Assembly (NCBI RefSeq): GCF_964355755.1
Contig: NC_092670.1
Coordinates: forward strand, 2,098,201 to 2,162,200
DNA length: 64,000 nucleotides
Direction: 5' to 3'
From: Antedon mediterranea
Lineage: Eukaryota; Animalia; Echinodermata
Position numbers and translations under genes: made by a program. This document shows positions 9,618-38,053 of this stretch, one piece after another (position 1 is the first letter of the stretch; each line of letters starts with the position of its first letter). The notes beneath the pieces were generated by a model. It saw only the letters and a program-made list of their open reading frames with translations. It did not search any database and was not told the origin of the DNA.

Positions 9618-11230
9618 TAAACATTCATTATGTATACTGTTTAGTGGAGCTTTGACGACGCCACTTCCGGTCCTCAGACCTTGTAGTCTAACGTTCTTTT
9701 CTATTTCATTCATAGTTATCATAGCGTAGTAGCACATTATTTTGTTTTCTGTTCAAACTTATTAAAGAATCACCATGCATAATATGTATCAATAATTCTT
9801 TCTTATTTTAGTACTGTGAGAGTGACGGCATTATTGTGAAACAGTTTATTAGAAATTAATTTCAAATTTCAAAATGAAACACGAAGATGTATAGCAGTTT
9901 AGGAAAAACATTCGGATACGTAGCATATAGATGCGCGCTATTTTGAATGTAATGAACTATGATGTAAAAATACGACTTTTATAATTCATATCTACTATTC
10001 AACACCTTCCAGAACATTTTTTATTTATGAGTATCACTTTTCACTCTAAGCTTTAACAGATTAACATTTACTGTAAAGATGAAAATAAGTGACCCAAGTT
10101 ATTCAATTTTTAACGCGTAACTTTTTTACTTCACTGAAAGTTGGCCCTTGATATGAATTAAAGTTTTACTAAGTGTCTTTTAGTTTTTATTCTATGATCA
10201 ATAATTGAAATTCATAGAAATGAATGCAACTCAAATTGTGCCACTCTGACATCATTAAAAAATAGGAGGCACACAACTTCATGTGAATCTCCATATGTTG
10301 ACAAAGTTACGAAATGTTATGTTTACACATTTTAGAGATACACGTGACAAAAAATAACAGAAAGAAAAAAGGTCAAGTTTAATTGAATTGAATATCGAAA
10401 CGTGGTAGGCTTGACCTTTATCAAGATCGTCTAAAATGTATAAATGTAAACTACGATACTTAGTATTGTATATTCTGGAATAGCCGCTCCATAATCTCTT
10501 TGCTTTTCTTCCTTATATACACTTTTTATAATGTTAAATTATTATGTTTTATTTAACACATCATTGTCTTTTTTATATTTAATCTATGTACAAAATCATT
10601 AGATCCAACAAATTACCAAACTATTTACACTAATATAATTAAACATCGTATACTATGATATATACTATTAGTTAATACGACAAAGTAGTTTAGGATGTAG
10701 AAATAGGAAAATGTTTGTTTTTAAATTAAGATGTATTGTCCCCCTGAAAAATAATTTTTACATTTTTGTTGTTGTTGAACATGCCATTTTAATGTCACAT
10801 AATAGTTATCCACTTTGACAACAAATTTAGATCGACAAAAAAATTATATACCTGAAAAACCTGTAATTTAAAGCAAACAAAATGGCTGCCAGCCAACAGT
10901 GGATTTTTGGTTGAATTTAACCATTTATTTTGTCATTTAATAAGTAAAAACATTATTTTTTTCGGGTTTTTTTTCTACAGAAGTGATTAACTTTATTAAA
11001 ATTACAAAATATCATATTCAAAGTCTAATGGGACAATACATGTTTATGTCCTTCCGTTGCGTCATGAGAACCAAGAACAAATCACGATGGGCGTGACGAT
11101 GTTCTAAAATTTTAGGTACCCCCGTAACAGAGTGCACCCCCTATCGAATTACAACAGTAACGGGTTGCATGCTCCGCCTACTTTATGTTTATTCAACGAA
11201 TTTTATGCATCACTAACTCTCGCTTCTTTT

Positions 11231-13664: not shown

Positions 13665-16600
13665 ACTGTCAGAGGTACCCCGTGACAGATTGTACCCCCT
13701 ACAATATAACAGTTAATAACTATCTATTATAGGGGTGAAATATATTTCGGACTGCCTAGAATATGCACCCCCGTGAGAGATTGGACCCGCTATACTAACA
13801 GTTAATTACTATAGGGGTGCAATATATTACGTACTGTCTAGAATATTAGGTACCCCCGTGACAGATTGCACCCCCTATAATAACAGTTAATTTACTATCT
13901 ATTTTAGGGGATACAATATATTACGGACTGTCTAGATTATTAGGTACCCTCGTGACAGATTGCACCCCCTATAATATAACAGTTAATAACTACATATTAC
14001 AGGGGGTGCAATATATTACGGACTGTCTAGAATATTAGGTACCCCCATAACAGATTGCACCCCTATAATATAACAGGATAATAACTTTATTATAAGGGGT
14101 GCAATATATTACGGACTATCTAGAATATTAGGTACCCTCGTGACAGATTGCACCCCCTATAATATAACAGTTAATAACTATATTATAGGGGGTGCAATAT
14201 ATTACGGACTGTCTAAAATATTAGGTACCCCCGTAACAGATTGCACCCCCTATAAAAACAGTTAATTTACTATGTATTATAGAGGGTGCAATATATTACG
14301 GGCTGTCTAAAATATTAGGTACCCCCGTGTCGTGACAGATTGCACCCCCTATAATAACAGTTACCATCTATATTATGGGATACAATATATTATGGACTGT
14401 CTAGAATATTAGGTACCCCCGTGACAGATTGCACCCCTATAATATAACAGTTAATAACTATATTATAGGGGTGCAATATATTACGGACTGTCTAGAATAT
14501 TAGGTACCCCCGTAACAGATTGCACCCCTATAATATAACAGTTAATAACTATATTATAGGGGTGCAATATATTACGGACTGTCTAAAATATTAGGTACCC
14601 CCGTAACAGATTGCACCCCCTATAATATAACAGGATAATAACTATATTATAGGGGGTGCAATAATTATATTACGGACTGTCTAGAATATTAGGTACCCCC
14701 GTAACAGATTGCACCCCCTATAATAACAGTTAATTTACTATGTATTATAGAGGGTGCAATATATTACGGGCTGTCTAAAATATTAGGTACCCCCGTAACA
14801 GATTGCACCCCCTATAATATAACAGGATAATAACTATATTATAGGGGGTGCAATAATTATATTACGGACTGTCTAGAATATTAGGTACCCCCGTAACAGA
14901 TTGCACCCCCTATAATAACAGTTAATTTACTATGTATTATAGAGGGTGCAATATATTACGGGCTGTCTAAAATATTAGGTACCCCCGTGACAGATTGCAC
15001 CCCCTATAATAACAGTTAATTACCATCTATATTATGGGATACAATATATTATGGACTGTCTAGAATATTAGGTACCCCCGTGACAGATTGCACCCCTATA
15101 ATATAACAGTTAATAACTATATTCTAGGGGTGCAATATATTACGGACTGTCTAGAATATTAGGTACCCTCGTGACAGATTGCACCCCCTATAATAACAGT
15201 TAATTTACTATTTATTATAGAGGGTGCATATTACGGACTATCTAGAATATTAGGTACCCTCGTGACAGATTGCATCCCCTATAATATAACAGTTAATAAC
15301 TACATTATAGGGGGTGCAATATATTACGGACTGTCTAAAATATTAGGTACCCCCGTAACAGATTGCACCCCCTATAATATAACAGGATAATAACTTTATT
15401 ATAGGGGGTGCAATACGGACTATCTAGAATATTAGGTACCCCCGTGACAGATTGCACCCCCTATAATATAACAGGATAATAACTATATTATAGGGGGTGC
15501 AATATATTACGTACTTTCTAAAATATTAGGTACCCCCGTAACAGATTGCACCCCCTATAATATAACAGGATAATAACTTTATTATAGGGGGTGCAATATA
15601 TTACGGACTATCTAAAATATTAGGTACCCCCGTAACAGATTGCACCCCTATAATATAACAGGATAATAACTATATTATAAGGGGTGCAATATATTACGGA
15701 CTGTCTAAAATATTAGGTACCCCCGTAACAGATTGCACCCCCTATAATATAACAGTTAATAACTATATATTATAGGGAATACAATATATTATGGACTGTC
15801 TAGAATATTAGGTACCCCCGTAACAGATTGCACCCCCTATAATATAACAGTTAATAACTATATATTATAGGGGGTGCAATATATTACGGACTGTCTAGAA
15901 TATTAGGTACCCCGTGACAGATTGCACCCCCTATATTATAACAGTTAATAACTATATATTATAGGGGGTGCAATATATTATGGACTGTCTAGAATATTAG
16001 GTACCCCCGTAACAGATTGCACCCCCTATAATAACAGTTACTTCCTAACTATTATAGGGGGTGCAATATATTATGGACTGTCTAGAATATTAGGTACCCC
16101 CGTAACAGATTGCACCCCCTATAATATAACAGTTAATAACTATATATTATAGGGAATACAATATATTATGGACTGTCTAGAATATTAGGAACCCTCGTGA
16201 CAGATTGCACCCCCTATAATATAGCAGTTAATAACTATATTTATAGGGGGTGCAATATATTACGGACTGTCTAAAATATTAGGTACCCCCGTAACAGATT
16301 GCACCCCCTATAATATAACAGTTAATAACTATATTATAGGGGGTGCAATATATTACGGACTGTCTAGAATATTAGGAACCCCCGTAACAGATTGCACCCC
16401 CTATAATATAACAGTTAATAACTATATTATAGGGGGTGCAATATATTACGGACTGTCTAAAATATTAGGTACCCTCGTGACAGATTGCACCCCCTATAAT
16501 AACAGTTAATTTACTATCTATTTTAGGGGATACAATATATTACGGACTGTCTAGATTATTAGGTACCCTCTTGACAGATTGCACCCCCTATAATATAACA

Positions 16601-19600
16601 GTTAATAACTACATATTATAGGGGGTGCAATATATTATGGACTGTCTAGAATATTAGGAACCCTCGTGACAGATTGCACCCCCTATAATATAGCAGTTAA
16701 TAACTATATTTATAGGGGGTGCAATATATTACGGACTGTCTAAAATATTAGGTACCCCCGTAACAGATTGCACCCCCTATAATATAACAGTTAATAACTA
16801 TATTATAGGGGGTGCAATATATTACGGACTGTCTAGAATATTAGGAACCCCCGTAACAGATTGCACCCCCTATAATATAACAGTTAATAACTATATTATA
16901 GGGGGTGCAATATATTACGGACTGTCTAAAATATTAGGTACCCTCGTGACAGATTGCACCCCCTATAATAACAGTTAATTTACTATCTATTTTAGGGGAT
17001 ACAATATATTACGGACTGTCTAGATTATTAGGTACCCTCGTGACAGATTGCACCCCCTATAATATAACAGTTAATAACTACATATTATAGGGGGTGCAAT
17101 ATATTACGGACTGTCTAAAATATTAGGTACCCCCGTAACAGATTGCACCCCCTATAATATAACAGTTAATAACTATATATAGGGGGTGCAATATATTATG
17201 GACTGTCTAGAATATTAGGTACCCCCGTAACAGATTGCACCCCCTATAATAACAGTTACTTCCTAACTATTATAGGGGGTGCAATATATTATGGACTGTC
17301 TGAGAATATTAGGTACCCCCGTAACAGATTGCACCCCCTATAATATAACAGTTAATAACTATATATTATAGGGGGTGCAATATATTACGGACTATCTAGA
17401 ATATTAGGAACCCTCGTAACAGATTGCACCCCCTATAATATAACAGTTAATAACTATATTATAGGGGGTGCAATATATTATGGACTGTCTAAAATATTAG
17501 GTACCCCCGTGACAGATTGCACCCCTATAATAACAGTTAATTACCATCTATATTATGGGATACAATATATTATGGACTGTCTAGAATATTAGGTACCCCC
17601 GTGACAGATTGCACCCCTATAATATAACAGTTAATAACTATATTATAGGGGTGCAATATATTACGGACTGTCTAAAATATTAGGTACCCCCGTGACAGAT
17701 TGCACCCCCTATAATATAACAGGATAATAACTATATTATAGGGGGTGCAATATATTACGGACTGTCTAAAATATTAGGTACCCCCGTAACAGATTGCACC
17801 CCCTATAATAACAGTTAATTTACTATTTATTATAGAGGGTGCAATATATTACGGACTGTCTAAAATATTAGGTACCCCCGTGACAGATTGCACCCCCTAT
17901 AATATAACAGGATAATAACTATATTATAGGGGGTGCAATATATTACGGACTGTCTAAAATATTAGGTACCCCCGTAACAGATTGCACCCCCTATAATAAC
18001 AGTTAATTTACTATTTATTATAGAGGGTGCAATATATTACGGACTATCTAGAATATTAGGTACCCTCGTGACAGATTGCATCCCCTATAATATAACAGTT
18101 AATAACTACATTATAGGGGGTGCAATATATTACGGACTGTCTAGAATATTAGGTACCCCCGTGACAGATTGCACCCCCTATAATATAACAGGATAATAAC
18201 TATATTATAGGGGGTGCAATATATTACGGACTGTCTAGAATATTAGGTACCCCCGTAACAGATTGCACCCCCTATAATAACAGTTAATTTACTATTTATT
18301 ATAGAGGGTGCAATATATTACGGACTGTCTAGAATATTAGGTACCCCCGTAACAGATTGCACCCCCTATAATAACAGTTAATTTACTATTTATTATAGAG
18401 GGTGCAATATATTACGGACTGTCTAGAATATTAGGTACCCCCGTGACAGATTGCACCCCCTATAATATAACAGGATAATAACTATATTATAGGGGGTGCA
18501 ATATATTACGGACTGTCTAGAATATTAGGTACCCTCGTGACAGATTGCACCCTTATAATAACAGTTAATTTACTATGTATTATAGAGGGTGCAATATATT
18601 ACGGGCTGTCTAAAATATTAGGTACCCCCGTGACAGATTGCACCCCCTATAATAACTGTTAATTACCATCTATTATAGGGGGTGCAATATATTATGGACT
18701 GTCTAAAATATTAGGTACCCCCGTAACAGATTGCACCCCCTATAATAACAGTTAATTACTAACTATTATAGGAGGTGCAGCAATATTGTAATGTACCGGT
18801 TTTTAATACAAATAAGTGAGAGAGAGAAAGAGAAGTTGAAAGCTGAATGTTTATTCTTTATTCTACATCTACTATATAATAACAATATCCGTAATGGGTA
18901 ACTTATCTGTCAAGGTGGAATGTTTAGTGGTCTCAGCAGAGGGTCTACTTTAGCCATTAGTGACCATAAGTAGCCAAGGGTTAACATAATATATATGGTA
19001 ACAGGTGAAGGAAGTATAAATAATTGGTAATATTAATCAAGTTCAATACATTACAAATATATTACGGACTGTCTAGAATATTAGGTACCCCCGTAACAGA
19101 TTGCACCCCCTATAATAACAGTTAATTACTATCTATTGTAGGGAGTGCAATATATTACGGGCTGTCTAAAATATTAGGTACCCCCTTGAAGGATTGCACC
19201 CTCTATAAAATCAGTTTATTTACTATCTATTATATTTATTTATTTATTTTATTAACAAAAACAGAAAAGTAAAATTAATTATATAAGACTAAAAATCTGA
19301 ATAAGAAAAATTTGAAATATAGAAAATAACTGATATGATAATGGGTGCAATATTACGGACTGCCTAGAATATTATGCACCTCCGTGACAGATTTGAACCC
19401 CTATAATATAACAGCTAATACCTATTTATTTTAGGGGATAGAATATATCATGGACTGTCTAGAATATTAGGTACCCCCGTGACAGATTGCACCCCTATAA
19501 TATAACAGTTAATTTACTATCTATTTTAGGGGATACAATACATTATGAACTGTCTATCTAGAATATTAGGTACCCCCGTGACAGATTGCACCCTTATAAT

Positions 19601-20160
19601 ATAACAGTTAATAACTATACATTATAGGGGGTGCAATATATTATGGACTGTCTAGAATAATAGGTACCCCGTGACAGATTGCACCCTTATAATATAACAG
19701 TTAATAACTATATATTATAGGGGGTGCAATATATTATGGACTGTCTAGAATAATAGGTACCCCGTGACAGATTGCACCATTATAATAAAACAGTTAATAA
19801 CTATATATTATAAGGGGTGCAATATATTACGGCCTGTCTAGAATATTAGGTACCCCCGTGACAGATTGCACCCCCTATAATATAACAGTTAATAACTATA
19901 TATTATAGGGGGTGCAATATATTATGGACTGTCTAGAATATTAGGTAACCCCGTGACAGATTGCACCCCCTATAATAACAGTTAATTTACTATCTATTTT
20001 AGGGGATACAATATATTACGGACTGTCTAGAATATTAGGTACCCCCGTGACAGATTGCACCCCCTATAATAACAGTTAATTTACTATCTATTTTAGGGGA
20101 TACAATATATTACGGACTGCCTAGAATGTTATGCACCCCTGTGACAGATTGCACTCTGTA
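13665..20160 (+). repeat. TIR-derived ~93-bp tandem satellite, roughly 65 units, each with a 20-bp-stem hairpin
   Basis: Unit GACTGTCTARAATATTAGGTACCCCCGTRACAGATTGCACCCCCTATAATATA-ACAGTTAATAAC-TATATTATAGGGGGTGCAATATATTACG (period 93 between 16261 and 16354). Interrupted at 18787-19055 and ~19210-19340. Confidence 0.95.
18787..19055 (-). mobile_element. Solo LTR (269 bp) inserted into the satellite
   Basis: TGTAATGTA...TACATTACA inverted termini; AATAT 5-bp TSD (18782-18786, 19056-19060); TATA-like run followed by AATAAA on the minus strand; the satellite unit resumes in register. Confidence 0.75.
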
Positions 20161-20173
20161 TAATTTATCATTA

Positions 20174-20275
20174 ACAAGGCCAACAGCCATAAGTCGCGTG
20201 CTAAAACGCATAGTGATACCAGACCGACCGACCGACCGACATAGTGAACTATAGAGTCGTCCACGCGACTAAAAA
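20174..20275 (-). mobile_element. ~100-bp internally deleted copy of the HINE family seen at 1-2095
   Basis: AACAAGGCCAACAGCCAT..AGTCGCGTGCTA..(GACC)n..CATAGTGAACTATAG..CACGCGACTAAAAA, the reverse complement of both HINE ends. Confidence 0.8.
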
Positions 20276-20567
20276 CTCATATTTGATGGTGTGTCTTGAA
20301 AATGAGGAAGCTAGTGACCACCCTAAAACATTACCACTTTCTATTTTATTTTGAAAGGCAGCAGCTCTAAAAAAAATGTAACTGTAAACCAAATTCACTG
20401 TGGTCCCTCCTGTCCAACAATGTTACTCAGGTAATTTATCATACAGACAAGAAATTACGTTTATCAAGTTTAACCGCCAAATCCCTTGATGGTCGATGAA
20501 TCATTTAGATAACTGGTATATAACGGATTAAAAGTCGGACGATTGTCACATTTTCCGACAATTCGAG

Positions 20568-23500
20568 ATGGAAGACTACGAACCTATTTTCAAGTATATC
20601 TTTAGTGGTGAGTATCCACCAGAATACACAAAAACGGCAAAAAACCTCTTGAGGAGAAAGGCCAAGCTTTTTGAAATAAAAGGTAACTTTTTTTTCTTAC
20701 GCTGTGATTAGCAAGGCGAACCAAATTGACAATAGACGTTATAAAACTTTAATTAATATCCAAAATAACAATTTGAATTTATATCACCCCCACCCCACCC
20801 CCTCTCTCTGTCGGGAATTGTATTCCAGGCTGTTATAATAGCATGGATCTATAAATGTTTTGTTTTGTTTTAATTTTCCACTAACGTATATTTAAAAAGT
20901 GTATATCCATGTAAAATACAAAAACTTTTTGTTGTTGGTACGTTGGCAGGTGACTACCTCTATCACAAAACCAAAGATGGTGGAACATCACGCTGCATTA
21001 AAGATCGTTCAGAAATCAAAGAAATCTTAAGGGAAGCTCATGATCTGCCGTCTGGTGGCCATCAGGGCCAAAACAAAACAGTTGCATTTGTTTGTAAACG
21101 ATTTTATTGGCCAGGGCAAACCATTGACATAAAAAATTGGGTAGGTATTTTAAAGTAAGGAAATATATAATATTATAAAATTATTACTATAGCTCTATCT
21201 AAAGATGTTTTTCTTTTTTTATGTATTGCCACTGTCCACAACTTTTTATAAATCAGATAAAGAAATGTGAGAAATGCCAGAAAAGTGAAAAAATTAAATC
21301 TGTGGCAAAACAAGTTCAACCTATTGAGGTACGTATAAATCTAAAGTATGATTTTTTTTAGAAACAGACCTACATTTGCATTTTGTAAGCCTACTAAAGT
21401 TGAACTTATGATTACATGACATTATTATTATAGGTTGTTTTGAAACTTTTGTAATATATTAATTTTCTTTAAGGTTACGGGTCCTTTTGAAATGATGGGT
21501 ATCGACTTGATGGGCCCATACAAAGTAGCAGGTGGTGGAAAAAAATACATCTTTACTGCCACTGATTATTTCACAAAATGGTGTGAAGCCATGATCATCC
21601 CAAACAAAACAAGCGAGCACGTTGCCAGATGTCTTGTAAAGGTGTATTACAGGCATGGTGCTGTTCAGACTGTTATTAGTGACAACGGTAGAGAATTTGT
21701 TAACGAGGTAATGCTTTTATCAGTTTATTAATTAACACCGATTTATATCCATAACGTTTTGTATTAAGAAATAAGATACGTCGTGATAAGATATATACAG
21801 TATTTCCAATTTTTTTCGTTAAAGTAAATTGATTTCTTTTAATTCGATACATTAAAAACAATTGTGAGTATTTCATTAAGTTTTATTTAAAATATATAAT
21901 TTTTAAATATTAATTTTGTTGTGTAAGGTAAACAAACGGTTGTATGGTATCCTGGGTATCGAACACAGGAAGACAACAGCCTATCACCCGCAGACAAACG
22001 GACTTGACGAGAGCACAAACAAAAAAATAAAACAGTAAGTAACAAAAAAAAACACACTTTAAACCAAAGAATTGTAATGCATAACTTAAAACTAAGATCT
22101 AGAAAACTAACACCTAACATATCGTAGTTTTCTAGAAAACTAAGATATGTTAGGTGTTAGTTTTCTAGATCCAATGATGGGTATCTAGAAAACTAAGAAC
22201 CAAGATATCTTAGTTTTCTAGATCTAGAAAACTACGATTTTTTAATGGGCGATTGTACCATTTTTAGTGAATTTATACAATACAATATTATGAAAAAATG
22301 GGTATTACTATCCTCCATTTATTTTCTTACAAATCAAGTTAAAATACAGTACTATTACTTTCTTATTTATTTATTCTTTTTGTTTTAGTAATTGGGCAGA
22401 TTAATTTCAAATTATTTAATATTAATTTATTTGTGATAGCGGTAATAAGTACATGTGCAAAATTGTACTGACTAAATCAGGTACCAAATAATAATTATAT
22501 GAGTGTGTGTGTTGTGAATGTAGACAGGACAGGAGTAAACTCAAACAAAAAGTAACAATTTTTCACATATTTCATCACCCTGTTTGTATAAATATAGATA
22601 AGTACAAGAAGCAAGCAAATTATTAAATGAATCACTGAATATTTATTACTAAGTAGTACTTTTAGCACTATTAGTAAAACCACTGGATAAAATAGTTATA
22701 ATTTATAATGTATACTATTTGTCTATCCAAACAGAAAATCTAAATTGTTGTTGTCTAATTAAAACAATTAAAAAGTCACTAAAAATACATTACCCTTGAC
22801 AAAAAAATCTTTTTTGTGAATTCTTTTCTGGATCTAAAAAACTAAGATATCTTTATTCTTAGTTTTCTTGATCTTAGTTTTCCAGACACCCATCATCGGA
22901 TCTAGAAAACTAAGACCTACGATATCTTAATTTTCTAGATCTAGCAAACTCAGATATCTTAGGTCTTAGTTTATAGATCTTAGTTTTCTAGACACCATTA
23001 AGATGTTTTCTACTCCAAGCCACAATGTTTTTTTTTTCTTTATTTTGTCTATTTCAGATGTTTGAGCAAATTAGTTAATGACAATCAAGACGATTGGGAG
23101 TCGTATCTAGATGCGGCCGTATTTGCGTTAAATACGAAAATCCAAACAACTACAAAGTATTCTCCATTTTTTTTACTGTATAACCGCGAACCAAAAATAC
23201 CTGCGGAATATACTGATGAGGACCTGGTTTGGGTAAGAAGGTCCTATTTTGATTTTAACACCAAACTTTTGCATTAGGCCTATTTACACATTTTTTTGAT
23301 TAGTGAATGTCATCTTTTTCCATTATGATAGCTATCAGACATACCAAAAACGTCAATGCCGACGGAACAAAACCAGGCAGCAATAAAAACGAAGGTAAAA
23401 ACTACAAAGGAGCAGGTTTTAAGGAACATTAAAAAAAAACAATCGGCACAAGTCAGGAAGAGTGTGAAGAAAACTGTTGGTACGCCGATAACAGCCGGCA

Positions 23501-26500
23501 TGAAAGTGCTCGTCCGCAATCAGAGAAAGCGGAACATAAAGGGCGAAAAACTTGGTCCTAATTTTACAGGACCCTTTAAAGTTTTAGATGTTAATGGCAA
23601 AGTCTTGACCGTTACAGATGAAAAGAGGGTTAGAGTCGTAAATGTCGACTATGCCAAAATTTTCACCGAAAGTAAGTTCACCAAAGCGATACGATTACCT
23701 TACCGTAGTTGGATAATTTCCAAAGCGAAATTTCGCATTACAAAGTGTTAATGATATTTTCCTAATTATTAATTTAAATTATTTTTATAATATCTCTCTG
23801 TGTTTTTATTGGAAAATATCACAGAGTTTGGAGAGAGCCATGTAAGTTGTGATTATTTTAAAATTACAACTAACTGTCAAGGTTGTTCATGTTAATTATA
23901 TAAATTTAGTTATTTTTTCAAATTAAAATTTTTTTTTTTATAAACTAGGTAACACAGAATCTCAAGAGCCAGGTAAGTTGTTAAATTTTAAATACAATAC
24001 AAAAGTCTTCATGTAATTATCTAGATTGAATTATATTATCGACAAATTATGTTTATAATATTTGCTTTAAAAAAAGTGGAACATCACAGAGTCTCAAAAG
24101 CCTGGTAAGTTGTTATTTAGAAAAAAAACCAATTCAAAACATTGTTCATGGTAATTATATAAATGTAATTATGTTTGTAATATTTTTTTTTTTTTATTAG
24201 ATAACACCACAGAGCCTCAAGAGCCAGGTAAGTTGTAATATTTTATAAATATAATTGTCGATATTGTTCATGTTAATTATATAGATTTAATTATGTTATA
24301 AAATTGTGTTTATAATTTTTTTTTTATTAGATAACATCACAGAGCCTCAAGAGCCAGGTAAGTTGCAATATTTTATAAATATAATTGTCGATATTGTTTA
24401 TGTTAATTATATAGATTTAATTATGTTATTGAATTATACTTATAATATTTGCTTTTTTAAAATTAGATAACATCACAGAGTCTCAAGATACAGGTAAGTT
24501 GTAATATTTTATAAATATAATTGTCGATGTTGTTCGTGTTAATTACATAGATTTAATTATGTTATTAAATTATGCTAATATTTGCTTTTTTAAATTAGAT
24601 AACATCACAGAGCCTCAAGAGCCTGGTAAGTTGTAATATTTTATAAATATAATTGACGATATTGTTCATGTTAATTATATAGATTTAATTATGTTATAAA
24701 ATTGTGTTTATAATTTTTTTTTAATTAGATAACATCACAGAGCCTCAAGAGCCAGGTAAGTTGCAATATTTTATAAATATAATTGTCGATATTGTTCATG
24801 TTAATTATATAGATTTAATTATGTTATTGAATTATGCTTATAATATTTGCTTTTTTAAAAATTAGATAACATCACAGAGTCTCAAGATACAGGTAAGTTG
24901 TAATATTTTATAAATATAATTGTCGATGTTGTTTGTGTTAATTACATAGATTTAATTATGTTATTGAATTATGCTAATATTTGCTTTTTTAAATTAGATA
25001 ACATCACAGAGTCTCAAGAGCCTGGTAAGTTGTAATATTTATAAATATAATTGACGATATTGTTCATGTTAATTATATAGATTTAATTATGTTATAAAAT
25101 TGTGTTTATAATTTTTTTTTTTATTAGATAACATCACAGAGCCTCAAGAGCCAGGTAAGTTGCAATATTTTATAAATATAATTGTCGATATTGTTCATGT
25201 TAATTACATAGATTTAATTATGTTATTGAATTATGCTAATATTTGCTTTTTTAAACTAGATAACATCACAGAGCCTCAAGAGCCAGGTAAGTTGGAATAT
25301 ATTATAAATATAATTGTCGATATTGTTCATGTTAATTACAGTACATAGATTTAATTATGTTATTGAATTATGCTAATATTTGTTTTTTTTATTAGATAAC
25401 ATCACAGAGCCTCAAGAGCCAGGTAAGTTGTAATATTTTATAAATATAATTGTTGATATTGTTCATGTTAATTATATAGATTTAATTATGTTATTGAATT
25501 ATGCTAATATTTGCTTTTTTAAATTAGATAACATCACAGAGTCTCAAGAGCCTGGTAAGTTGTAATATTTTATAAATATAATTGTCGATATTGTTCATGT
25601 TAATTACATAGATTTAATCATGTTATTAAATTATGCTAATATTTGCTTTTTTAAATTAGATAACATCACAGAGCCTCAAGAGCCTGGTAAGTTGTAATAT
25701 TTATAAATATAATTGACGATATTGTTCATGTTAATTATATAGATTTAATTACGTTATAAAATTGTGTTTATAATTTTTTTTTTATTAGATAACATCACAG
25801 AGCCTCAAGAGCCAGGTAAGTTGCAATATTTTATAAATATAATTGTCGATATTGTTCATGTTAATTACATAGATTTAATTATGTTATTGAATTATGCTAA
25901 TATTTGCTTTTTTAAATTAGATAACATCACAGAGCCTCAAGAGCCAGGTAAGTTGTAATATTTTATAAATATAATTGTCGATATTGTTCATGTTAATTAT
26001 ATAGATTTAATTATGTTATTGAATTATGCTAATATTTGCTTTTTTAAATTAGATAACATCACAGAGTCTCAAGAGCCTGGTAAGTTGTAATATTTATAAA
26101 TATAATTGACGATATTGTTCATGTTAATTATATAGATTTAATTATGTTATAAAATTGTGTTTATAATTTTTTTTTTTATTAGATAACATCACAGAGCCTC
26201 AAGAGCCAGGTAAGTTGCAATATTTTATAAATATAATTTTCGATATTGTTCATGTTAATTACATAGATTTAATTATGTTATTGAATTATGCTAATATTTG
26301 CTTTTTTAAATTAGATAACATCACAGAGCCTCAAGAGCCAGGTAAGTTGTAATATTTTATAAATATAATTGTCGATATTGTTCATGTTAATTATATAGAT
26401 TTAATTATGTTATTGAATTATGCTAATATTTGCTTTTTTAAATTAGATAACATCACAGAGTCTCAAGAGCCTGGTAAGTTGTAATATTTTATAAATATAA

Positions 26501-27718
26501 TTGTCGATATTGTTCATGTTAATTACATAGATTTAATTATGTTATTAAATTATGCTAATATTTGCTTTTTTAAATTAGATAACATCACAGAGCCTCAAGA
26601 GCCTGGTAAGTTGTAATATTTTATAAATATAATTGACGATATTGTTCATGTTAATTATATAGATTTAATTATGTTATAAGATTGTGTTTATAATTTTTTT
26701 TTTTATTAGATAACATCACAGAGCCTCAAGAGCCAGGTAAGTTGTAATATTTATAAATATAATTGTCGATATTGTTCATGTTAATTACATAGATTTAATT
26801 ATGTTATTGAATTATGCTAATATTTGCTTTTTTAAATTAGATAACATCACAGAGTCTCAAGATCCAGGTAAGTTGTAATATTTTATAAATATAATTGTCG
26901 ATATTGTTCATGTTAATTATATAGGCCTATAGATTTAATTATGTTATTAAATTGTTTTTATAAAATTTTGTTTTTATTTTTTTTATTAGATAACATCACA
27001 GAGTCTCAAGAGCCAGGTAAGTTGGAATATTTTATAAATATAATTTTCGATATTGATCATGTTAATTATATAGATTTAATTATGTTATTGAATTATGCTA
27101 ATATTTGCTTTTTTAAATTAGATAACATCACAGAGTCTCAAGATCCAGGTAAGTTGTAATATTTTATAAATATAATTGTCGATATTGTTCATGTTAATTA
27201 CATAGATTTAATTATGTTATTGAATTATGCTAATATTTGCTTTTTCAAATTAGATAACATCACGGACTCTCAAGAGCCTGGTAAGTTGTAATATTTTATA
27301 AATATAATTGTCGATATTGTTCATGTTAATTACATAGATTTAATTATGTTATTGAATTATGCTAATATTTGCTTTTTTTTTAATTAGATAACATCACAGA
27401 GCCTCAAGAGCCAGGTAAGTTGTTAAATAGAAACAAATACGATTCAACACATTCTTTATGTTAATTATATAAATTTTAATTTATCAAATTATGTTTATAT
27501 TATTTTATAAGTATGTAATATTTTTTTTTAATTAGATAACATCACAGAGTCCCAAGAGACAGGTAGGTTGTCAAAGTTTATAAAGCAATGTTCATGTTAT
27601 ATTAATTTTGATTAATTTATCACATTCTTTTTATATATTTGGTGATTTCATCAATTCTCAAGAACCAGGAAAATTGTAATATTTTAACAACATTGTTCAT
27701 AATATTTTATCTATTTAT

Positions 27719-27767
<49 letters not shown>

Positions 27768-30700
27768 AATTAGATAACAACAAAGATTCTCAAGAGCCTG
27801 GTAAGTTGTTATTATTTTATATATTAAAGCATTGTTTTTATGTTTGATTAAATTATTTTATCAATAATGTATATTTGGTTTCATTTTTTCTTGTATCAGA
27901 TGATTTTACAGAGTCTCAAGAACCAGGTATTTTAAAAATTCTTATATTCAACAATGTTCTTCATGTTAGTTTAGGCCTATAGATATAGACTACTGTAGGT
28001 CATAATTAATTTGTTAATTTAATTTAAATATTTTGATTCAGCATTATAGATGCTTGTGTGTTTTGGCTTTCCCTGCCTTTTATTTATTTTGTATTTGGTA
28101 GTATTATGAATAAAACAGAAATAAACTTACAAGAAAAAGATATATATCCATTGATATAATTGTAAAAATCAATGGACCTTTCCTAGCTAGAATGTTACAA
28201 TAGGTGCAGCATATATAACACTTACATTATTTTCCTTTCTCTTTAGTTGAAGATGAAGATTTTTTTAATCTACGTAAGTACATAATTGAAAATAATAAAA
28301 GAACTGATATATACTGATTTGCTCCTAAAAATGCCCCTGTTGTTGATCCATTGTAGCAATAGTTTTAGTATAATTAAATAAAAAACAATTTTATTCCAGC
28401 TGAACTAGATATATCATGGACAAAGCAAGAGAGTTGTGAGTATATAAATCTTTTTGTACATAAAAATAAATTATATGTTATAATAAAAGTATAGTCTGAA
28501 TAATATTTTTTATTAAGTCAGCCGGTCAGCAGATTAGACCTACTAATTCTGCACTCACTGTAGCAAACAATGAAAAACAAAGTAATGGGACTTGAATTAC
28601 AGTAACAAAGTTATTAAAAGATGATTTTAAAGCTTGCAGAAAATATTATGATCCAAATTCAACATTTTTTTACAGTTAAAATAGGTGCAGATTGGAGAAC
28701 CAAGCAAAACATTGATCTGAATATTAAACAAGAAGGTATGTATAAATTGTGTATTGTTATGTTTTTTTATTTATTGAACAATAACCTAATTTGTATGCAG
28801 CAATACAACAAACAATTATTTCAAACTCCTTTTATACAGTGATAAGTGATGAAGATGAGCAGAAAGATGATGATGAAGATGAGCAGAAAGATAATGATGA
28901 TGAGAAGAAAGGTAATACTAATAGGAATTAAAAGTTTTTATTCAAACAGAACTGTGCTTAGTTATGATATACAGTATTACATACTAATGTTACACAATGC
29001 TACAGTATATTTAAATGTTGTTCTTTAAATAGCTCAAGAAATTGGTAGATATTATGATAATGAAACGGCAGAGAATGGTAAGTCTAATATAGTACAATTT
29101 AATAATTATCAAATCAGTAGGCCTAATATAAATTTTTAAAATTGTATAAAAATGAAATGGTAGTTTTGTACATTTTTACAATAATATTATAATCATATTG
29201 TTACACTATATACTACTGTACGGTTTCCCCTTTCTTTTAAAAATGGGATTTAGGTTAATAAGATATGTCATTTTTTCATTTTTTGTGATTGATTGAGTGA
29301 TCGATAACTGGTAATCAAAATTATAAATCTCTCTTTAAGATGAAAATTTAAAAGTGACTACAATATAAACATGATTACAGTTCTAATTGCTTTTAAAATG
29401 AAAAAAAATTTTGTTTAAAGCTCTTACCACCGCATGGAAACAGAAAAATCATAGGTGTTTGCTAAGTAAAGTTGGAGATTTTAAAATATACAACAATGAT
29501 ATAAAAACTATTGAGAGTTGGCTCTCTGATCAGGTAAGCCTAATATGTTTGTAATCTAAGTTAAATGAAGTTATTTAAAGTCTGTCAATACCTTTTGTGT
29601 TTTGTTGTATTTTATGTATGTTTTGATCTCTTTTATTTAATGTAAGCATGTTTAGGTCCACCCTTTATAAATAATATTGTTTAATTGTTTTGTAATACTA
29701 AGTTCTGTATGTTTATTTGAACAACAGAAAGAATTGAATTACATTATTATTTATTGGGCTGTGTAATATCATTACTCTTTTAAATTGCAGGTCATAGATG
29801 TGTACATAGAAATGTTAATGCATAGGAATAAGGTTGGTACTGTATTCCATTGTCAAAATATAGTTAAATAACAATTTATAATGACCTCATAATTGTACAG
29901 TGAAACAGGACTGGTGAATTAGTATTTACACAAAATTGAATATAAATGTAACATACCACTATCTTCAACAGTAAAAGATAACTGTAATGTGCTTTCAAAT
30001 GTTAAGCATATATTTTCTATTGTGTCATACAGGAACAGAGAACACACCGAATTGATGCAGTGATTATGACAGAAATTCTGAAAGGAAAGTGTCAAGAAAA
30101 CTATCTGAGAAGGGTAAGGATTTCGAACAACCAGCAATGTAGGTTTTACATGTTGAAAAGTTTACTGTCCATGTGGCAGCACAACATCTCTTATATCAAC
30201 ACGAAGTCACTGATAGTGTCCCTATAACATGATGAATTAAATAAAAGCACACTGAGTAATCAATATTCCTGAATATTTATTTGAACATTTATATTGAATG
30301 ACATCAGTCACACAGATTCAAATTGATTCACATGCCTTTATGTCACATGAGATACAAACTGACTAGATATCCACAAATGTTTTCACACTATGTATTATTA
30401 TAAATATGTTTATTTCATTAGGTTGACTTGTCGCAATTTGACATCATAATAGGCGCACTGATTGAGAATCGTCACTGGACACTTGTGGTATATATTCTTT
30501 ATGTAAAAAATATAAACTATAACTTTAGGGACATGTTTTTTCCACAATTTACTACATTATCATATACTTTATTTTAAGAAGTGATATGGAAATTTTCTTC
30601 ATATTTCTTTAAAATACATATTGCCAGTTATTATTCACTTAAAAAGCATTACAAATATATAACATGTAAAGTAAATTGTGATTAACTATTATTGGCAAAT

Positions 30701-33700
30701 GACATAGTGTCCGACAAGTCATCCATAATAAGTAATAACTAATAAAGCTCTTGAAATTGTTCTAAAGAAATAATATCATTATAATATCAATTGATAAATA
30801 ACATATTTAATTCCAGGTTGGATACCCACAGCAAAGACTACTGATATACCTAAACTCGTTAGGAGAACTTCAAGAACAAGTTGAGACCATCAAGATGAAC
30901 TGGAAGTAAGAAAACAAATATTAACGAAAATGAGCTCACAAATACAGTACATAAATCAACCATTGCATGCTACTAATATGATTCATTGTTTATTTATTAT
31001 TAGCAAATTTCTACAGATGAGATTCAACAAGGGAATTGTGGGAAGTGAGCAAGAAAGTTGGGATGTATCTACATCTGTTCATTCCAAACAACAAGACAGT
31101 TCGTCATGTGGTGTGTTTGTACTAAAGGTAAATATGAACAATTACAGTACATACATTCGTTATCAAAACAAATCAACTTTTTCTAATTATATGCCATGTA
31201 TGTAACATAGTTTTATGCTGAAGTGCTCTAAACGTTGTTTGGCATTTCTCAACAAAATCAATTAACAGCGCAAATTTTTATTCTAAGTTTGCACAGGCTT
31301 CATTAGAAAATCAAAGTCTGATTTTTAAAACAGACAAGAAATCAATACAGCATTACAGAAAACAAATTGGTGTAGAAATGTTAATGGCTTCAGGTATGAT
31401 TTTTTACAGATATTGTACACTGATAGTACTTTTAATTATAGTCAATAAGTGAACTATAGGTTTTATTGAATTCTAACAATGGTATTTTTCTTTAAAGGTT
31501 TGAATTGCTAATAAACACTAGTAAAGTTAGGTTTGCAGTATGCTATGTGTTTTTCGTGTGCACCACAAACCTAACTTTACTAATTCTAACAATGTTTCAA
31601 ACAATTCAGCCTATAGTTTATGACTTACTCCATACTGTAATTAAGCACTTAGCAACTCAAAGATATACAGAGAGCAACAGAGGGCTTGTTATTTGTTATT
31701 TTGCTTCATATTTAAAATAGTAGTATTTTTTATCAACTACATATCAATTTTTCTGAAATTCAATAATTCAATGTTCTGTGAGTATATATTCAGGATTATA
31801 ACTTGAAAATTGTGGATGCTATCGTGCAAACAAACAAACAATAAATAAATTGCAGACAAAATACAGCATGCCTTGGTTGCATAAGTTTTGCTGCCTGATG
31901 AAAATTATAAGGATATAAAAACTCTAAACCTTCAAGTCAGACAATTTCAAGAAAATATCAATTTACATCCAATATGAAGTAGATAAATTTTAAATATTGG
32001 GATTTTTCTAATGAAATGTTGATATAACTGTAGCATCAAGTAATTATAAATTTGTATTCTTGTTGGACAGAAAACCTAGATTCCTATTGCAGAATCTGTG
32101 GATATGAAGATCTGCCGACTAGTTTAGATAACAATGATACTCAAACAGTGCAATGGGTAGGTACAACAATATAGATGAACTACAAAATAATCCAGGGTCT
32201 AGTATACTTTATCCGCACAGCAAATGCCACATGCACGCCATGCATTAGAATATTGCTCACAGAAAAAGATTATGCCACTATGCCCTAAAGAAAATGTATG
32301 CCATCTACTTTGTGTCATATAGTATATATAGTATACATAGAATACTGTATACATGCTGTAGCATGTAGCATGCCTTTTATTAACATTTTTAACATGATGA
32401 CTTTGTCAAAATAAAAACCAAAGAACGTAATTTTGGAAGAAAAGTATCTGAGCAACAAGATTATTAACCAAAAATGGATACACAGGTGCATGACTTTTTA
32501 AATGTGATAAACAATGAAGCATAAGATAAAAATCTAGAAATTTTTCGTTCAACTAGCCATATGATTCATATCTACAATTCAGTATCACATTGATTATTCA
32601 TAGCAGCTATATAACAGATTAAAATTTACTGTAAAGAAAAAAATAAATGACCCATATTATTATTATTTGAATTTGTTGACATGATGTTGTCATCAAAATT
32701 AAAATGTTTGTAAATCAGGCTTAAGATATTTAATTGAGCAAACAACTATTAAATTCTTGAGGGAAATTGTACGAATAAGCGAGATGCGCAATATTAATTG
32801 TTTCACGAATCATGTAAAAAGTTCATCAGAACTTAATTCAACAGAAAGTGTTAAAAAAAAAATAACTGTTAGTGTTTAATCTATGATCAATTTTTAAAAT
32901 TCATGAAATTTTAAATCATGTTGCACAATTCTGACATTAAAAATAGGAGGTACACAACTTCATATAAATAAATGTCTATATGTTGACAAAGTTACGCAAT
33001 ATTGTTTGAACATTTTATAGCTACGTGACCATAAAGAAAGAATAATAAATAACAAGGAGTTATATATAAGTGCTAAAACAATTTTTCATAATTACCAACA
33101 ATCTATACTTCAATTAAATCCCTGGATTAATAGAAGGAACTAGGGTTTGCTAGGCAAATATTAAATATTGATAAGATCATTTTGTTTTGTGAATTATAAA
33201 TTTGCAGTTGGATATGCAATTATATAATAAACCTGTAGGCCTAACTATTTTTATTCATTTTTTGCAGATTGCTTGTGAGGAATGTAAACCAGATAAGTGG
33301 TTTCACATAGAATGCACAGAAATCTGTCCATCATTTAGTATGAATCAAAAATATAAATGCAAAAGCTGCACGCCTCTAAAAAAAACAACACAGCAAAAAC
33401 CAGATAAATCAGAGCCATTTGAACTTGTTTATTTATCAAACAGGATACGAAAATGCAAGGGATGTGGCAAGGAGTTTATAAAGCCAATTATCTCTCCATA
33501 TAACACTGTCATAAGACACAAAGAGCGAACCCCTTACTTTAACAAAGCAACGGGTCAAATGGCACTGTCAAAATTGGCAAATGTATACTTCCATCCCAGT
33601 ACAAAGTGTGTGAGACTTTGTCATCCTGGTTTCAAGCCAATTCACTTGATAAAGGCCAAGGAAACCATGTTAACGAATGTCCAAAAGACATTTCTTCAAA

Positions 33701-33723
33701 TGAAAGGTTTTAATTTAAGTTAA
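20568..33723 (+). CDS. Ginger1 transposase polyprotein (~1150 aa, ~50 exons): integrase + GPY/F + acidic micro-exon linker + Ulp1/C48 protease + PHD + PARP-like zinc finger
   Basis: Integrase exons 20568-20682, 20950-21140, 21257-21328, 21474-21707, 21928-22034, 23058-23232, 23332-23671 (GEYPPEY; AHD..GGHQG..CEKCQ; GIDLMGP; ISDNGREF; YHPQTNGLDE = D35E; GPF). Phase-1 micro-exons 23949-29077. Ulp1 exons 29421-29533, 29791-29832, 30033-30113, 30422-30487, 30817-30905, 31004-31127, 31288-31393 (WLSDQVID, HWTLV, YLNSL, QQDSSSCG). PHD exons 32071-32156 and 33268-33723 (CRIC..W-IACEEC..WFHIEC..CKSC). All junctions GT-AG and in frame by manual splicing. Confidence 0.85.
22075..23000. mobile_element. 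MITE-like insertion in integrase intron 5 with ends built from CTAGAAAACTAAG motifs
   Basis: Both ~170-bp ends consist of (CTAGAAAACTAAGA / TCTTAGTTTTCTAG) repeats and are imperfect inverted copies (ATGATGGGTATCT vs AGACACCCATCAT). Confidence 0.6.
24201..27414 (+). repeat. ~131-bp tandem array; each unit is a 27-nt micro-exon plus a ~104-nt intron (25 core copies, more diverged copies from 23949 to 27926)
   Basis: Every unit reads TAG|ATAACATCACAGAG(C/T)CTCAAGA(G/T)CC(A/T)G|GTAAGT or a close variant; encodes DNITE(P/S)Q(E/D)(P/T) in phase 1. Confidence 0.92.
32188..33129. repeat. Dispersed repeat in the last Ginger intron, possibly HINE/MITE-like
   Basis: Inverted ends TAATCCAGGG / CCCTGGATTA; segment ~32880-33050 is similar to ~10190-10370 (AAAATAGGAGG.ACACAACTTCAT..ATATGTTGACAAAGTTACG). 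Confidence 0.45.
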
Positions 33724-34629
33724 ATCAAGTTACTATTTTTTGACATTTGGATAGTAAATCACACTTTTAGGTCGAAAATATAAATTGGTAGCACCAATTT
33801 ATTCTATTACTATTTATCCTGTTTTATATATCTTTTAACAAAAGTATTGAAACACATTTTTTAAAGAACCTTTAGGTTGAAAATATGAATTGGTAGCACC
33901 AATTTATTTTAATATTTAACCTGTTTTATATATCTTTTAACAAAATTTAAAATATTATAATAGTATTTTATTGGTTACTCTCCTTTAAAATGTAGGAATT
34001 ATTAATTTATAATATATTGTGCTATGCGACATACCTATATTAAAAAAGTTACATACAGGTATTACACACATTTTTGTTATTGTATGTATCTATACAAATG
34101 GGGTATCAATATGAGGGAGTAATGGATCATAGCCTTATGCTGTACTGGGTGGGTTTTCATTTAACATTTGAAAACTGCCACGACGGACGGGCAGGGGAGG
34201 TTGGTGACGGGGGGAGGGGGGGTTGGTACCCACTCTGCGGCAAGTATCTCTGCTTACAATCATGCTCTCGCACCTTTAAGTAGTGCAATTATTTTGTTCT
34301 CATTCCAGTTTCTACTTACAGTATTTGTGATAGCTATACAGTAATTTTACAAGATTACAATTATTTTACCACACAATTTTCTTTGCACTTTTGTTTTACA
34401 CCATAGCAATGTTGATCTTTTTTAAAATTAAGTATACACTAAAATACAAAAGTGGAAATGTATGTTGAACTGAACGTATTTATTTTAAATCTTCTGATGT
34501 AGTATATTCAATTTTAATTCATGATCAGTTTCCTTTCTGACTTTCCATGGAAAAAATGTGTGAAACTTTTGCACTTTCTCCACCGTCCATATTGTTGTTG
34601 TAATCTTTCTTTTAATTGTATAATATGTC

Positions 34630-35280
34630 TGAATGCGGCCAAAAATGATATTGCTTACAATGCTAAGAAATCATCTTGTATGATAATCTGTCCTAAATCA
34701 CAGAGGATTCAATTGAAACCTATTATTACCATTAATGACAAAAGCTTAGAATATGTTGACTCAACCATATATCTTGGTCATGTTATCGATATAAAGCGGC
34801 AATACAGATCTTTGTGTATCTGAGCAAACTCCTTGGTCAGAAAATTTAGTATGTGTTCTATCAATGTAAAATGTGTTTTATTTAGAACATATTGTGTAAA
34901 TATGTATTGCGCTACATTATGGTGCAACTATAATCAAGGTACCTTGCGATCTCTCCAGGTATGCTACAATAATGGTTTAAGAATGTTGCTACAAAGGCCT
35001 CGACATTGCAGTGTCAGCCTTATGTTTACGGAATGTAGAATTCCTTCTTTTTATGAATTGCCAAGAAATCAATATATGGCCTGATGGGTAGACTAAATGC
35101 AAGCGAAAATATTTTAGTCTCAACGATTATAAGCAACGTCTTAGTTAAGTCGAAGATGCCCTCTAGGTGGATTACAGTAGTAGTAGTAATTAGTCTTGTT
35201 TATTTTATTTCATTTATATGTAATTTTCACTTTCTATGGACCAGAGATTCCGAAATAAAAGAATGAATGAATGAATGAAT
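34630..35280 (+). mobile_element. 5'-truncated, degraded non-LTR retrotransposon 3' end (RTE-X-like) nested in Ginger
   Basis: RT C-terminal motifs YNAKKSSCM..YLGH..DIKRQYRSL..ANSLVRKFSMCS..VKCVLFRTYC..LW with a stop and frameshifts; ends AATAAAA(GAAT)n. Clade assignment is tentative. Confidence 0.75.
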
Positions 35281-36802
35281 AACCCCAGTGTTGTTAATTT
35301 GTCCAAAGTACAGTACGCCTTTTTACATCAATTTAATTTTAACATTTTTCACAATTGTGTCGTTTTGTTCAAGTGCTTTTGGAGTGCCCTCAATTTTAAA
35401 TAAGGTTTCAATTTTATACCATAAAACCTTACCAGGCAATACTTTTGCATCATTTGTCATTATTTTCGTGTTTTTACGAGGTCAAATGTCAAAATTGAAA
35501 TGGTCTCAAATTTGAAATTGTTAAAAGTTGCAAATTTTTGATACAATTTGCCATACCAAGTTTTATGATTTCTAACCAAATTTGAAGTATTTTAGGTCTA
35601 AGAAGCCTACCAATAGTGGAACTCTCCCAATAGAACATGATTTTTAATAAAGGCTCCGTCAAATCCATTATACACAATTGTGTATCACATTTCAATCTGT
35701 AGTAGAATGACATGATCTACAATTTACCAAGTATTTTGATAATACAATTTTCACTGTATTCACTTATACAGTAGGACTATTCTGAATGAATGAATGCGCT
35801 GCTTGCACAGCATTTATTGTCAAATATATAAAATATTTAAAATAAGTTTTTAAATGACGCCCTACAAAGAACAGATCGCACAACACAAAAGTTTGACGTT
35901 TAAATAGAGGTGCCAAATTTTTTCATAGCTAGTACTAGTAGTAGGGGATATTTATTAGATTTATACTGTATTTCCTGTTACCACATTACACCTAAAAAAT
36001 AAACGCCTAGGCCCTAGGCCTAGTTAGGTCTCTACTGAGTAGGCTAGTAACTACTATAAGTACTATCTCTACCACCATCTACTAGGAATAAGCCTAGGCC
36101 CTAGGCCTATAGTAGTAGTATTACTTTACCTAATAAGGCTAGTAGTAGAGTAGACAATAATTAATAAACTTTCTTTTAGGCCTATATTCTATATAAGTAG
36201 TAGGCCCAGTAGTAGAATGCTTACTACACGGGAATCCCTTACTACTTGGGTAGTAGGCCTGGCCCTACGGGATACGGCCCCTACTCACCACCACCATCCG
36301 ACCCCATTTATTTTTACCTTTTCACAGTCTCAGTCAGGCCTAGCTAGGCCTAGCTAGGCCTATGACTTGTATTGTAGACCTATGCTAGGCCTAGTGTATG
36401 TCTTTAATAATAGTAGTATACTTTATTACGGAGTGGGAAATATATCCTTCCTCTAGGCTAATTAAAAAAGAATAATTAATAAATAACTAGGCCTAGGCCC
36501 TAGACCTAGGCCGGCCATCTAGGCCTAGGCCTACTACCTATAGGCCTAGTATCCCGTACGACACACGACGTACAGTACACACTTCTTCTTTTTTAACACA
36601 CGCGATCCATATCATCATCATCAGAGGGGATGCTAAAAAATATGGGCGGTTCGCAAATGCAAATTAGACTGTGACGTCATTTGTAATTCGATAGGGGGTG
36701 CACTCTGTTATGGGGGTACCTAAAATTTTAGAACAACGACGTTGTGGTGGTTGTAGTCGGATCTTCATAGAACCAGGGAAGAGTTTCTTCCCTGGTACTG
36801 TA

Positions 36803-37974: not shown

Positions 37975-38053
37975 AGCCTTTCAGAAAATAACTCGGCCTA
38001 AAACTCACATGTTTTTACTTTTGTCCAGTACTTTTATTTAACATTTCTAAACG

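Follow-up and report, generated by a model that had tools for sequence, protein, structure and literature searches.

Ginger1 transposons are described as elements of 2.6-7 kb with 0-4 introns and proteins of about 500-800 amino acids (aa), some of which, e.g. Ginger1-9_HM, carry Ulp1 and PHD domains in addition to a stand-alone Gypsy-type integrase with YPYY-like, H2C2, DDE and GPY/F motifs (Bao, Kapitonov and Jurka 2010, PMC2836005). Here, we describe an element of this kind in 64,000 nucleotides of Antedon mediterranea (contig NC_092670.1, positions 2,098,201 to 2,162,200, forward strand), referred to as the window and numbered from its first letter. The element is an intact Ginger1-like DNA transposon of 25,636 bp, located at 11100-36735 between two host genes. 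It has the same type of integrase and, like Ginger1, C-terminal Ulp1 and PHD domains, terminal inverted repeats (TIRs) within 40-270 bp, a 4-bp target-site duplication (TSD), TGT...ACA ends and introns, but it differs in its length (25.6 kb), its 50 predicted introns, its predicted protein of 1158 aa and an extra C-terminal Cys/His-rich domain. The linker between its integrase and Ulp1 domains is, on balance, likely encoded by 35 frame-symmetric micro-exons, 25 of which are core copies likely derived from tandem duplication of an exon together with its intron, in a nearly neutral process. The parts of the Ginger1 description on which this comparison draws mention no micro-exon array.

Tandem repeats of exon plus intron are known from the SmPoMuc genes of Schistosoma mansoni (PMC2576457), in which a 27-bp exon and its flanking intron are repeated in up to about 20 homogenised copies and transcripts vary in repeat number. 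The array in the window has the same type of unit, one symmetric micro-exon plus intron. SmPoMuc, however, is a secreted host mucin gene family with a unit of about 1 kb containing microsatellites, its splicing is shown whereas ours is predicted, and the parts of that publication used here report no gradient from centre to edge such as that of the window array. The schistosome micro-exon genes (MEGs) and VAL-6 likewise contain series of tiny symmetric exons whose skipping preserves the frame (PMC4350168). According to the parts of that source used here, MEGs encode secreted or membrane-anchored products that evolve fast (high dN/dS), whereas the product in the window would be the linker of a nuclear enzyme. 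Its N-terminus is an integrase instead of a MEG-type signal peptide, micro-exons account for 360 of 1158 aa and not for most of the product, and we saw no diversifying selection in them. The portions of PMC6839031, PMC6431247, PMC12863088 and PMC3424704 used here describe no such array. At title and abstract level, we found no micro-exon array in a transposase in the literature; most subscription papers, Repbase entries and supplements lie outside this scope and may hold an earlier case. Nor did these searches turn up an exon-plus-intron repeat in a transposase.

The transposase gene and its micro-exons

The gene model places one gene on the plus strand, with 16 domain exons and 35 micro-exons (23949-29077). 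Its parts, together with a satellite of the same element to which the array is compared below, are as follows.

20568..23671, plus strand: seven integrase exons (YPYY-like, H2C2, DD35E, GPY/F; from Pfam and relatives) at 20568-20682, 20950-21140, 21257-21328, 21474-21707, 21928-22034, 23058-23232 and 23332-23671
23813..23841, plus strand: degenerate unit that retains its donor but has lost the normal acceptor, with a 2-nt insertion
23949..23972, plus strand: edge micro-exon of 24 nt, in-frame 3-nt deletion relative to the consensus
24077..24104, plus strand: degenerate unit that retains its donor; acceptor poor, length 28 nt if used
24201..27414, plus strand: core array of 25 exons of 27 nt (DNITE[P/S]Q[E/D][P/T]) with introns of 102-122 nt, from Tandem Repeats Finder (TRF) and splice ends
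27536-27562, 27774-27800, 27900-27926, plus strand: diverged right-edge units, splice sites kept
27642-27668, plus strand: degenerate unit, both splice sites lost
28247-28273, 28400-28435, 28522-28581, 28676-28735, 28840-28911, 29033-29077, plus strand: six unique mini-exons, 100 aa, acidic
29421..31393, plus strand: seven Ulp1-domain exons (phmmer, E 1e-32 to PF02902-bearing relatives) at 29421-29533, 29791-29832, 30033-30113, 30422-30487, 30817-30905, 31004-31127 and 31288-31393
32071-32156, 33268-33723, plus strand: PHD finger exons, with an extra Cys/His-rich C-terminal part and the stop at 33723
13673..20154, plus strand: 94-bp satellite in the element, unit with a near copy of the inner TIR (TRF, about 68 copies)

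All 35 micro-exons listed in the initial annotation were found at their positions in the transposase gene, between the last integrase exon, which carries GPY/F and ends at 23671 in phase 1, and the first Ulp1 exon, which starts at 29421 in phase 1. Each of them has AG...GT ends, a length that is a multiple of three and phase 1-1. The inventory was incomplete in that it missed the three degenerate units at 23813-23841, 24077-24104 and 27642-27668. TRF delimits the array at 23883-27423 with a period of 132, 26.8 copies and 87% matches; core exon starts run from 24201 to 27388, the GC content is 46% in core exons versus 16% in core introns, and the centre of the array is homogeneous while its edges are diverged. 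There are 8 exon haplotypes among the core units, several intron indels lie in homopolymer runs, and the introns fall into three variants in the order ACBACBABBBBABBABBBABABBB. There are thus three variants and not the two alternating ones proposed initially, and the roughly 3-unit pattern is clear at the left end only (ACBACBA), the order of the remainder being irregular. A clean higher-order repeat of three units was rejected, as unit identity at lag 3 (0.911) is about that at lag 8 (0.910), with 0.871 at lag 1. The six unique mini-exons measure 27, 36, 60, 60, 72 and 45 nt; the ends of 28247, 28400-28435 and 28840 are uncertain, with alternatives at 28253, 28439 and 28801.

Joined by coordinates, the exons form an open frame of 1158 aa, or of 798 aa if all micro-exons are skipped, and it follows by arithmetic that the frame is preserved whichever of the 35 segments are skipped. 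The acidic linker of up to about 360 aa that had been anticipated is borne out by the prediction: the full linker comprises 360 aa with a computed net charge of -103 and an isoelectric point (pI) of 4.05, and its neighbours are basic (integrase pI 9.6, Ulp1-PHD pI 9.1).

Reading frame and splice signals both point to the modelled exons. In the imposed frame, the joined micro-exons contain 0 stops versus 6 and 63 in the other two frames, and the six unique exons 0 versus 6 and 25. The training set of a frame-blind exon-chain search consisted of 21 donors and 23 acceptors of exons elsewhere in the window. With a penalty of 10, this search made 37 calls, 34 of which were multiples of three in length and 32 identical to exons of the model; over three penalties, 32, 30 and 29 of the 35 exons were recovered exactly, with multiples of three in 34/37, 31/34 and 30/31 calls. 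On the minus strand of the array, it made at most one call. Candidates that were both a multiple of three and open made up 6 of 11 in the unique region, compared to 15 of 157 in control DNA of 37 kb (p=0.0006), and 5 of 6 compared to 2 of 39 with stricter thresholds, although these p-values are optimistic because overlapping candidates are not independent. Length alone was rejected as evidence and replaced by length plus open frame, since 6 of 11 control calls were also multiples of three. The core donors score 9.9-12.2 and the core acceptors 3.9-12.8, compared to 5.5-13.2 and 1.5-12.6 for the training sites, and none of the 25 core units has lost its AG, its GTAAGT, its length of 27 nt or its open frame. 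A branch-like CTAAT motif is found at -20 to -23 before 15 of the 35 micro-exons, the array copies not being independent, and CTAAY within -14 to -45 before 3 of 15 ordinary exons.

The flanking domains were assigned by Pfam and by comparison with relatives. Single exons matched Integrase_H2C2 (PF17921, 1e-14) and rve (PF00665, 3e-13), as well as SH3_Tf2-1 with an E value of 8e-4, below that family's own cut-off. The catalytic residues D137, D196 and E232 correspond to DD35E, the GPY/F motif is present as GPF at aa 378 and aligns with relatives, and a YPYY-like motif was located by eye in aa 16-42, ahead of the zinc finger, in a region covered by BLAST alignments with relatives that begin at aa 1-10. 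Single Ulp1 exons gave no Pfam match, and this domain was assigned by the PF02902 of the relatives. Its putative counterpart of the His-Asp-Cys catalytic triad of Ulp1/C48 proteases falls on H868, N885 and C937, in columns with His in 19 and Cys in 20 of 20 relatives; Asn in place of Asp occurs in 3 of the 20. No match was obtained with single exons as word-based homolog queries or with the exon of the catalytic Cys against PDB sequences. Atlas look-alikes of the PHD finger score under 0.9 and are a lead only. The PHD finger is followed by a Cys/His-rich domain of about 110 aa (CxxC ... H-x4-C, within 33268-33723) without a match in Pfam or in the 38 relatives introduced below, and a single-sequence fold of this last exon was unusable (predicted local distance difference test, pLDDT, 38).

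The gene model INDEPENDENTLY is supported by three fish RefSeq isoform pairs that show clean internal deletions on exon boundaries. The skipped segments map to aa 103-126, 810-850 and 851-872 of the window protein and fall, in 3 of 3 cases, exactly on modelled exon boundaries: the ends of integrase exon 3 coincide with a fish skipped exon, and so do Ulp1 boundaries. In a sponge relative, an isoform difference of 2 aa at the start of the Ulp1 region coincides with the window intron before 29421. From these boundaries shared in fish and sponge, it follows that the intron-rich structure is a trait of this lineage.

Assembled contigs of several sequencing runs touch the same gene. Contigs of runs X2 and X5 carry a 4-base deletion at 33383 plus linked substitutions in the last exon (33347-33414), and those of run X6 have 3- and 1-base deletions near 33383; therefore, other copies or haplotypes exist, some of them frame-shifted. 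Contigs of a second organism (B) are about 98-99% alike across the introns of the Ulp1 region. Depth over Ulp1-PHD far exceeds that over 27770-29587 in both X1 and X6, which may mean other copies with other linkers and was not used as evidence.

Linkers of related proteins

Proteins with the same domain order, rve+Ulp1(+PHD), and with intron positions shared with the window are present in fish and sponge (XP_025763981.1, XP_072562184.1, XP_049328588.1, XP_065899898.1), where they are annotated as 'uncharacterized' or 'gypsy retrotransposon integrase-like protein 1'. A HMMER search with the integrase-core exon yielded 150 proteins, and a quick tree with 56 rows placed the window together with six integrases lacking a reverse transcriptase (RT), with a Shimodaira-Hasegawa-like approximate likelihood ratio (SH-aLRT) support of 96; the RT labels in this tree come from a crude pattern and it includes no Repbase references. 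A search with one of the RT-less integrases gave 166 matching proteins, and relatives were taken among the 120 matches listed. The 38 relatives examined comprise the first 29 listed, 5 others in that list and 4 from earlier searches; 12 of them without one of the anchors were dropped and the remaining 26 measured.

A linker between GPY/F and Ulp1 is present in all 26, with a length of 52-378 aa and none near zero, and the 23 relatives with a close N-terminal anchor have linkers of 58-378 aa (median 159). At the position of the window linker, 18 of the 26 carry a tandem repeat with periods of 5-22 aa, seven of them of 8-9 aa (at least 0.94, compared to at most 0.71 in shuffles). The unit number differs by whole units in 5 of 8 pairs of genomic copies, in agreement with the initial claim that it varies at the DNA level; in a sponge family, linkers of 202 and 224 aa differ by one 22-aa unit. 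The coding repeats of the relatives at exactly this site are, judged from sequence, the strongest argument that the micro-exons may be coding, and they would fit use of the six unique exons alone as well. As the relatives normally have a repetitive linker that varies in length, the coding reading is strengthened and the linker itself is ordinary; the unusual part would be that the spacer is, as predicted, built from micro-exons. The distance from GPF to the start of Ulp1 is 37 aa with all micro-exons skipped, 137 aa with the six unique ones and 397 aa with all of them, compared to 134 aa in a fish relative, and therefore skipping every micro-exon leaves no linker.

The fish integrase+Ulp1+PHD proteins are often misnamed in RefSeq/GenBank (proteoglycan 4-like, FLO11-like, rickA-like, SENP-like) because of their repeat linkers, and they look like a widespread, expressed Ginger1-like lineage. 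A metagenome scan of 78 loci found none with an Ulp1/PHD match or an intron-rich Ginger element. Distant integrase-type elements in the metagenomes carry intronless coding tandem repeats with units of 7-8 aa right after the DDE core (L049:731-1085, L051:1192-1445, L064:671-1062).

We propose that short phase 1-1 exons already made up the ancestral linker; the six unique ones, with 100 aa within the range of the relatives, would be representatives of these. A 27-nt exon would then have been duplicated together with its intron and amplified by unequal crossing-over, an expansion free of cost for the reading frame, as the exon is a multiple of three and the duplication begins and ends in introns. 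Introns of about 105 nt should permit intron-defined splicing. With their strong donors, the array introns may be spliced in this way, such that most units would enter the mRNA and occasional skipping would be harmless. The linker so produced, acidic, disordered and up to 360 aa long, would tether the DNA-cutting integrase to the Ulp1-PHD module, and its length would change mainly at the DNA level in a near-neutral rather than regulated manner.

Alternative readings of the array

Several observations weigh against the explanation proposed above. Across the 24 complete core units, nucleotide diversity is 0.062 in exons and 0.062 in introns, 7 of 27 exon columns and 25 of 103 intron columns are variable (exon versus intron interior, Fisher p=0.58), and 5 of the 7 variable exon sites alter the amino acid, which is about the neutral expectation. 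A conservation of exons over introns in the core was rejected on account of this equality, which fits recent homogenisation without strong selection. At the right edge, the splice-competent exons 27536, 27774 and 27900 keep 21-24 of 27 bases, compared to intron-window medians of 15-17, near shuffled levels. Exon positions no more conserved than intron positions, which the initial annotation had named as a refutation, are thus seen in the core and not at the edges. The unit without both splice sites (27642-27668) is down to 17 of 27 bases and the unit at 24078, which has no acceptor, keeps 22-24; altogether, a normal splice site is missing from 3 of the 7 diverged edge units, of which two retain 17-24 of 27 bases, and conservation at the edges thus extends beyond usable exons. 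Furthermore, the minus strand of the 94-bp satellite yields 62 exon-like calls, 49 of them multiples of three; therefore, a tandem array can mimic micro-exons by chance, and the mere recurrence of splice-like signals is no proof. Most of the 26 relatives are fish; they derive from a fish query, are partly non-independent and rest on automatic gene models, in which the exon structure of the linkers is not visible. Their linkers are rich in P/S/T/A and mostly neutral, in contrast to the strongly acidic linker of the window, and share low complexity only, with no common sequence or charge. The only run guessed to be RNA (X1) has contigs through introns without spliced joints; it behaves as DNA and is no evidence either way.

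These observations bear on a reading in which the core array descends from an exon that was once in use and is now a mostly skipped satellite within an intron, with splice-like signals kept only because of its youth and the working linker made of the six unique mini-exons, possibly joined by some edge units. The equal diversity of core exons and introns, the 137 aa given by the unique exons alone, so close to the fish relative, and the mimicry by the satellite of the same element all speak for it, as does the fact that 27-nt exons are often poorly recognised. Nevertheless, we regard this reading as possible but unlikely, given the intact splice sites, length and frame of every core unit, donors that equal or beat most real donors of the gene, and the repeats that are coding at the same position in most of the relatives measured. 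The decoy is also a poor parallel: we rejected the 94-bp satellite as a second micro-exon array because 13 of its 62 calls break the frame, its donors are weak (mean 7.2) and it has no flanking coding exons.

The initial annotation proposed a linker whose length can be tuned by splicing. In the extended form considered here, the array would be a selected device, in which regulated exon skipping sets the length of the linker and the number of its S/T-Q motifs and thereby tunes the transposase by tissue or stage. Every unit can indeed be skipped in frame, and acceptor strength varies with intron type across the range given above. Furthermore, the repeat holds 14 of the 17 S/T-Q motifs of the protein, the commonest exon polymorphism (P/S, 15:10) switches such a motif on or off, and an IKQE motif precedes the acidic exon; we take S/T-Q to be sites of DNA-damage kinases and IKQE to be a SUMO-type consensus. 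On the other hand, none of 14 RefSeq isoform pairs of the relatives, with linkers of non-visible exon structure, differ by a repeat unit, the core bears no sign of selection, and the linkers of the relatives have nothing but low complexity in common, all of which makes regulated skipping improbable. A splicing rheostat, in which the number of included micro-exons would set the reach of the SUMO-protease/PHD module along with the S/T-Q site count, the 17- and 28-nt units would act as a paired switch, and transposition would be switched between germline and soma by host or element, appears quite improbable.

Alternatively, the array might inactivate or attenuate this copy, because an AT-rich run could lead to mis-splicing, use of a frame-shifting degenerate unit or early polyadenylation, which would leave little complete transposase. 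Used alone, the degenerate 17-nt unit leads to a stop at codon 689 and the 28-nt unit to a stop at codon 429, ATTAAA occurs five times in the array, and the element has taken up several nested repeats. However, the acceptors of the two degenerate units are weak (3.1 and 0.6) and use of both restores the frame, there is no AATAAA in the array, and the reading frame, DD35E and TIR/TSD are all intact, so that we consider attenuation very improbable. That the array is in fact shorter and its unit number an artefact of assembly is barely credible, for although near-identical units are difficult to assemble, the differences among them are structured (8 exon haplotypes, 3 intron types, diverged edges) and an independent contig matches 27770-29648 with 0 differences, even if its run may be the window's own source.

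Ends and setting of the element

The ends of the transposon are given by the following features.

11096..11099, no strand: left TSD, ACGA, identical 4 bases at both ends
11100..11154, plus strand: left TIR, 55 bp, start TGTTC, pairs inverted with 36681-36735 with 1 mismatch
36681..36735, minus strand: right TIR, end ACA, inverted pair of the left TIR
36736..36739, no strand: right TSD, ACGA, equal to the left copy

The TIR length of 55 bp is inside the Ginger1 range of about 40-270 bp, the TSD has the 4 bp of Ginger1 on both sides, and the ends read TGT...ACA. Ginger1 TSDs are CCGG or CCGT/ACGG at 99% of the Hydra sites, according to the parts of PMC2836005 used here, whereas the single insertion site in the window has ACGA, one base off ACGG. 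Likewise, the 5' end TGTTC departs from the TGTNR of Ginger1 in its fifth base, C, with TGT kept. Because TGTNR and the listed TSD sequences are each missed by one base, the intact element is called Ginger1-like only and is not filed as a strict Ginger1 member, although every protein feature tested agrees with Ginger1. An identity as a long terminal repeat (LTR) retrotransposon was rejected, as TIRs and introns are present and the 1158-aa frame contains no RT.

The 94-bp satellite contains 47 matches, at 6 or fewer mismatches, to the TIR bases 11113-11146, and this 6.5-kb tract may be a series of binding sites for the transposase, with the end of the element itself as their origin. A further TIR-like copy is located near 12460-12502. 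The element also harbours a nested 1.2-kb long-inverted-repeat element (11230-12444), a short GTCT/GACC-microsatellite element (20172-20277) also present at 299-2096, an inverted repeat in intron 5 (22131-22939), a dispersed repeat (32612-33042) common to 10054-10362 and, at 34518-35260, a decayed 3' end with a GAAT tail that resembles a long interspersed nuclear element (LINE). The host DNA is AT-rich. By eye, we take the host gene on the left (2241-9242) to encode a PAN/kringle/EGF/YWTD/LDL-A mosaic protein and that on the right (38051-53058) a claudin/PMP22-like membrane protein. Within the span of the latter lies a perfect 41-bp array of 34 copies (47797-49189).

Implications

The gene structure is real as well as unusual and lies in an intact transposon; it was probably produced by near-neutral expansion in a repeat-prone linker, with its splicing predicted. 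If the units are spliced, this mobile element has about 50 introns and an exon-plus-intron satellite inside its transposase. Exon gain by tandem duplication would then be seen while still under way: the centre is homogenised, the edges decay, and older unique mini-exons lie alongside. The array offers a test of the spliceosome on 25 near-identical 27-nt exons with three acceptor strengths. For annotation, it is a warning that a transposon-internal satellite can be coding, and the 94-bp satellite shows that the reverse error is equally easy. The repeat-prone linker common to the fish and sponge relatives suggests that the family keeps a long free tether between integrase and Ulp1.

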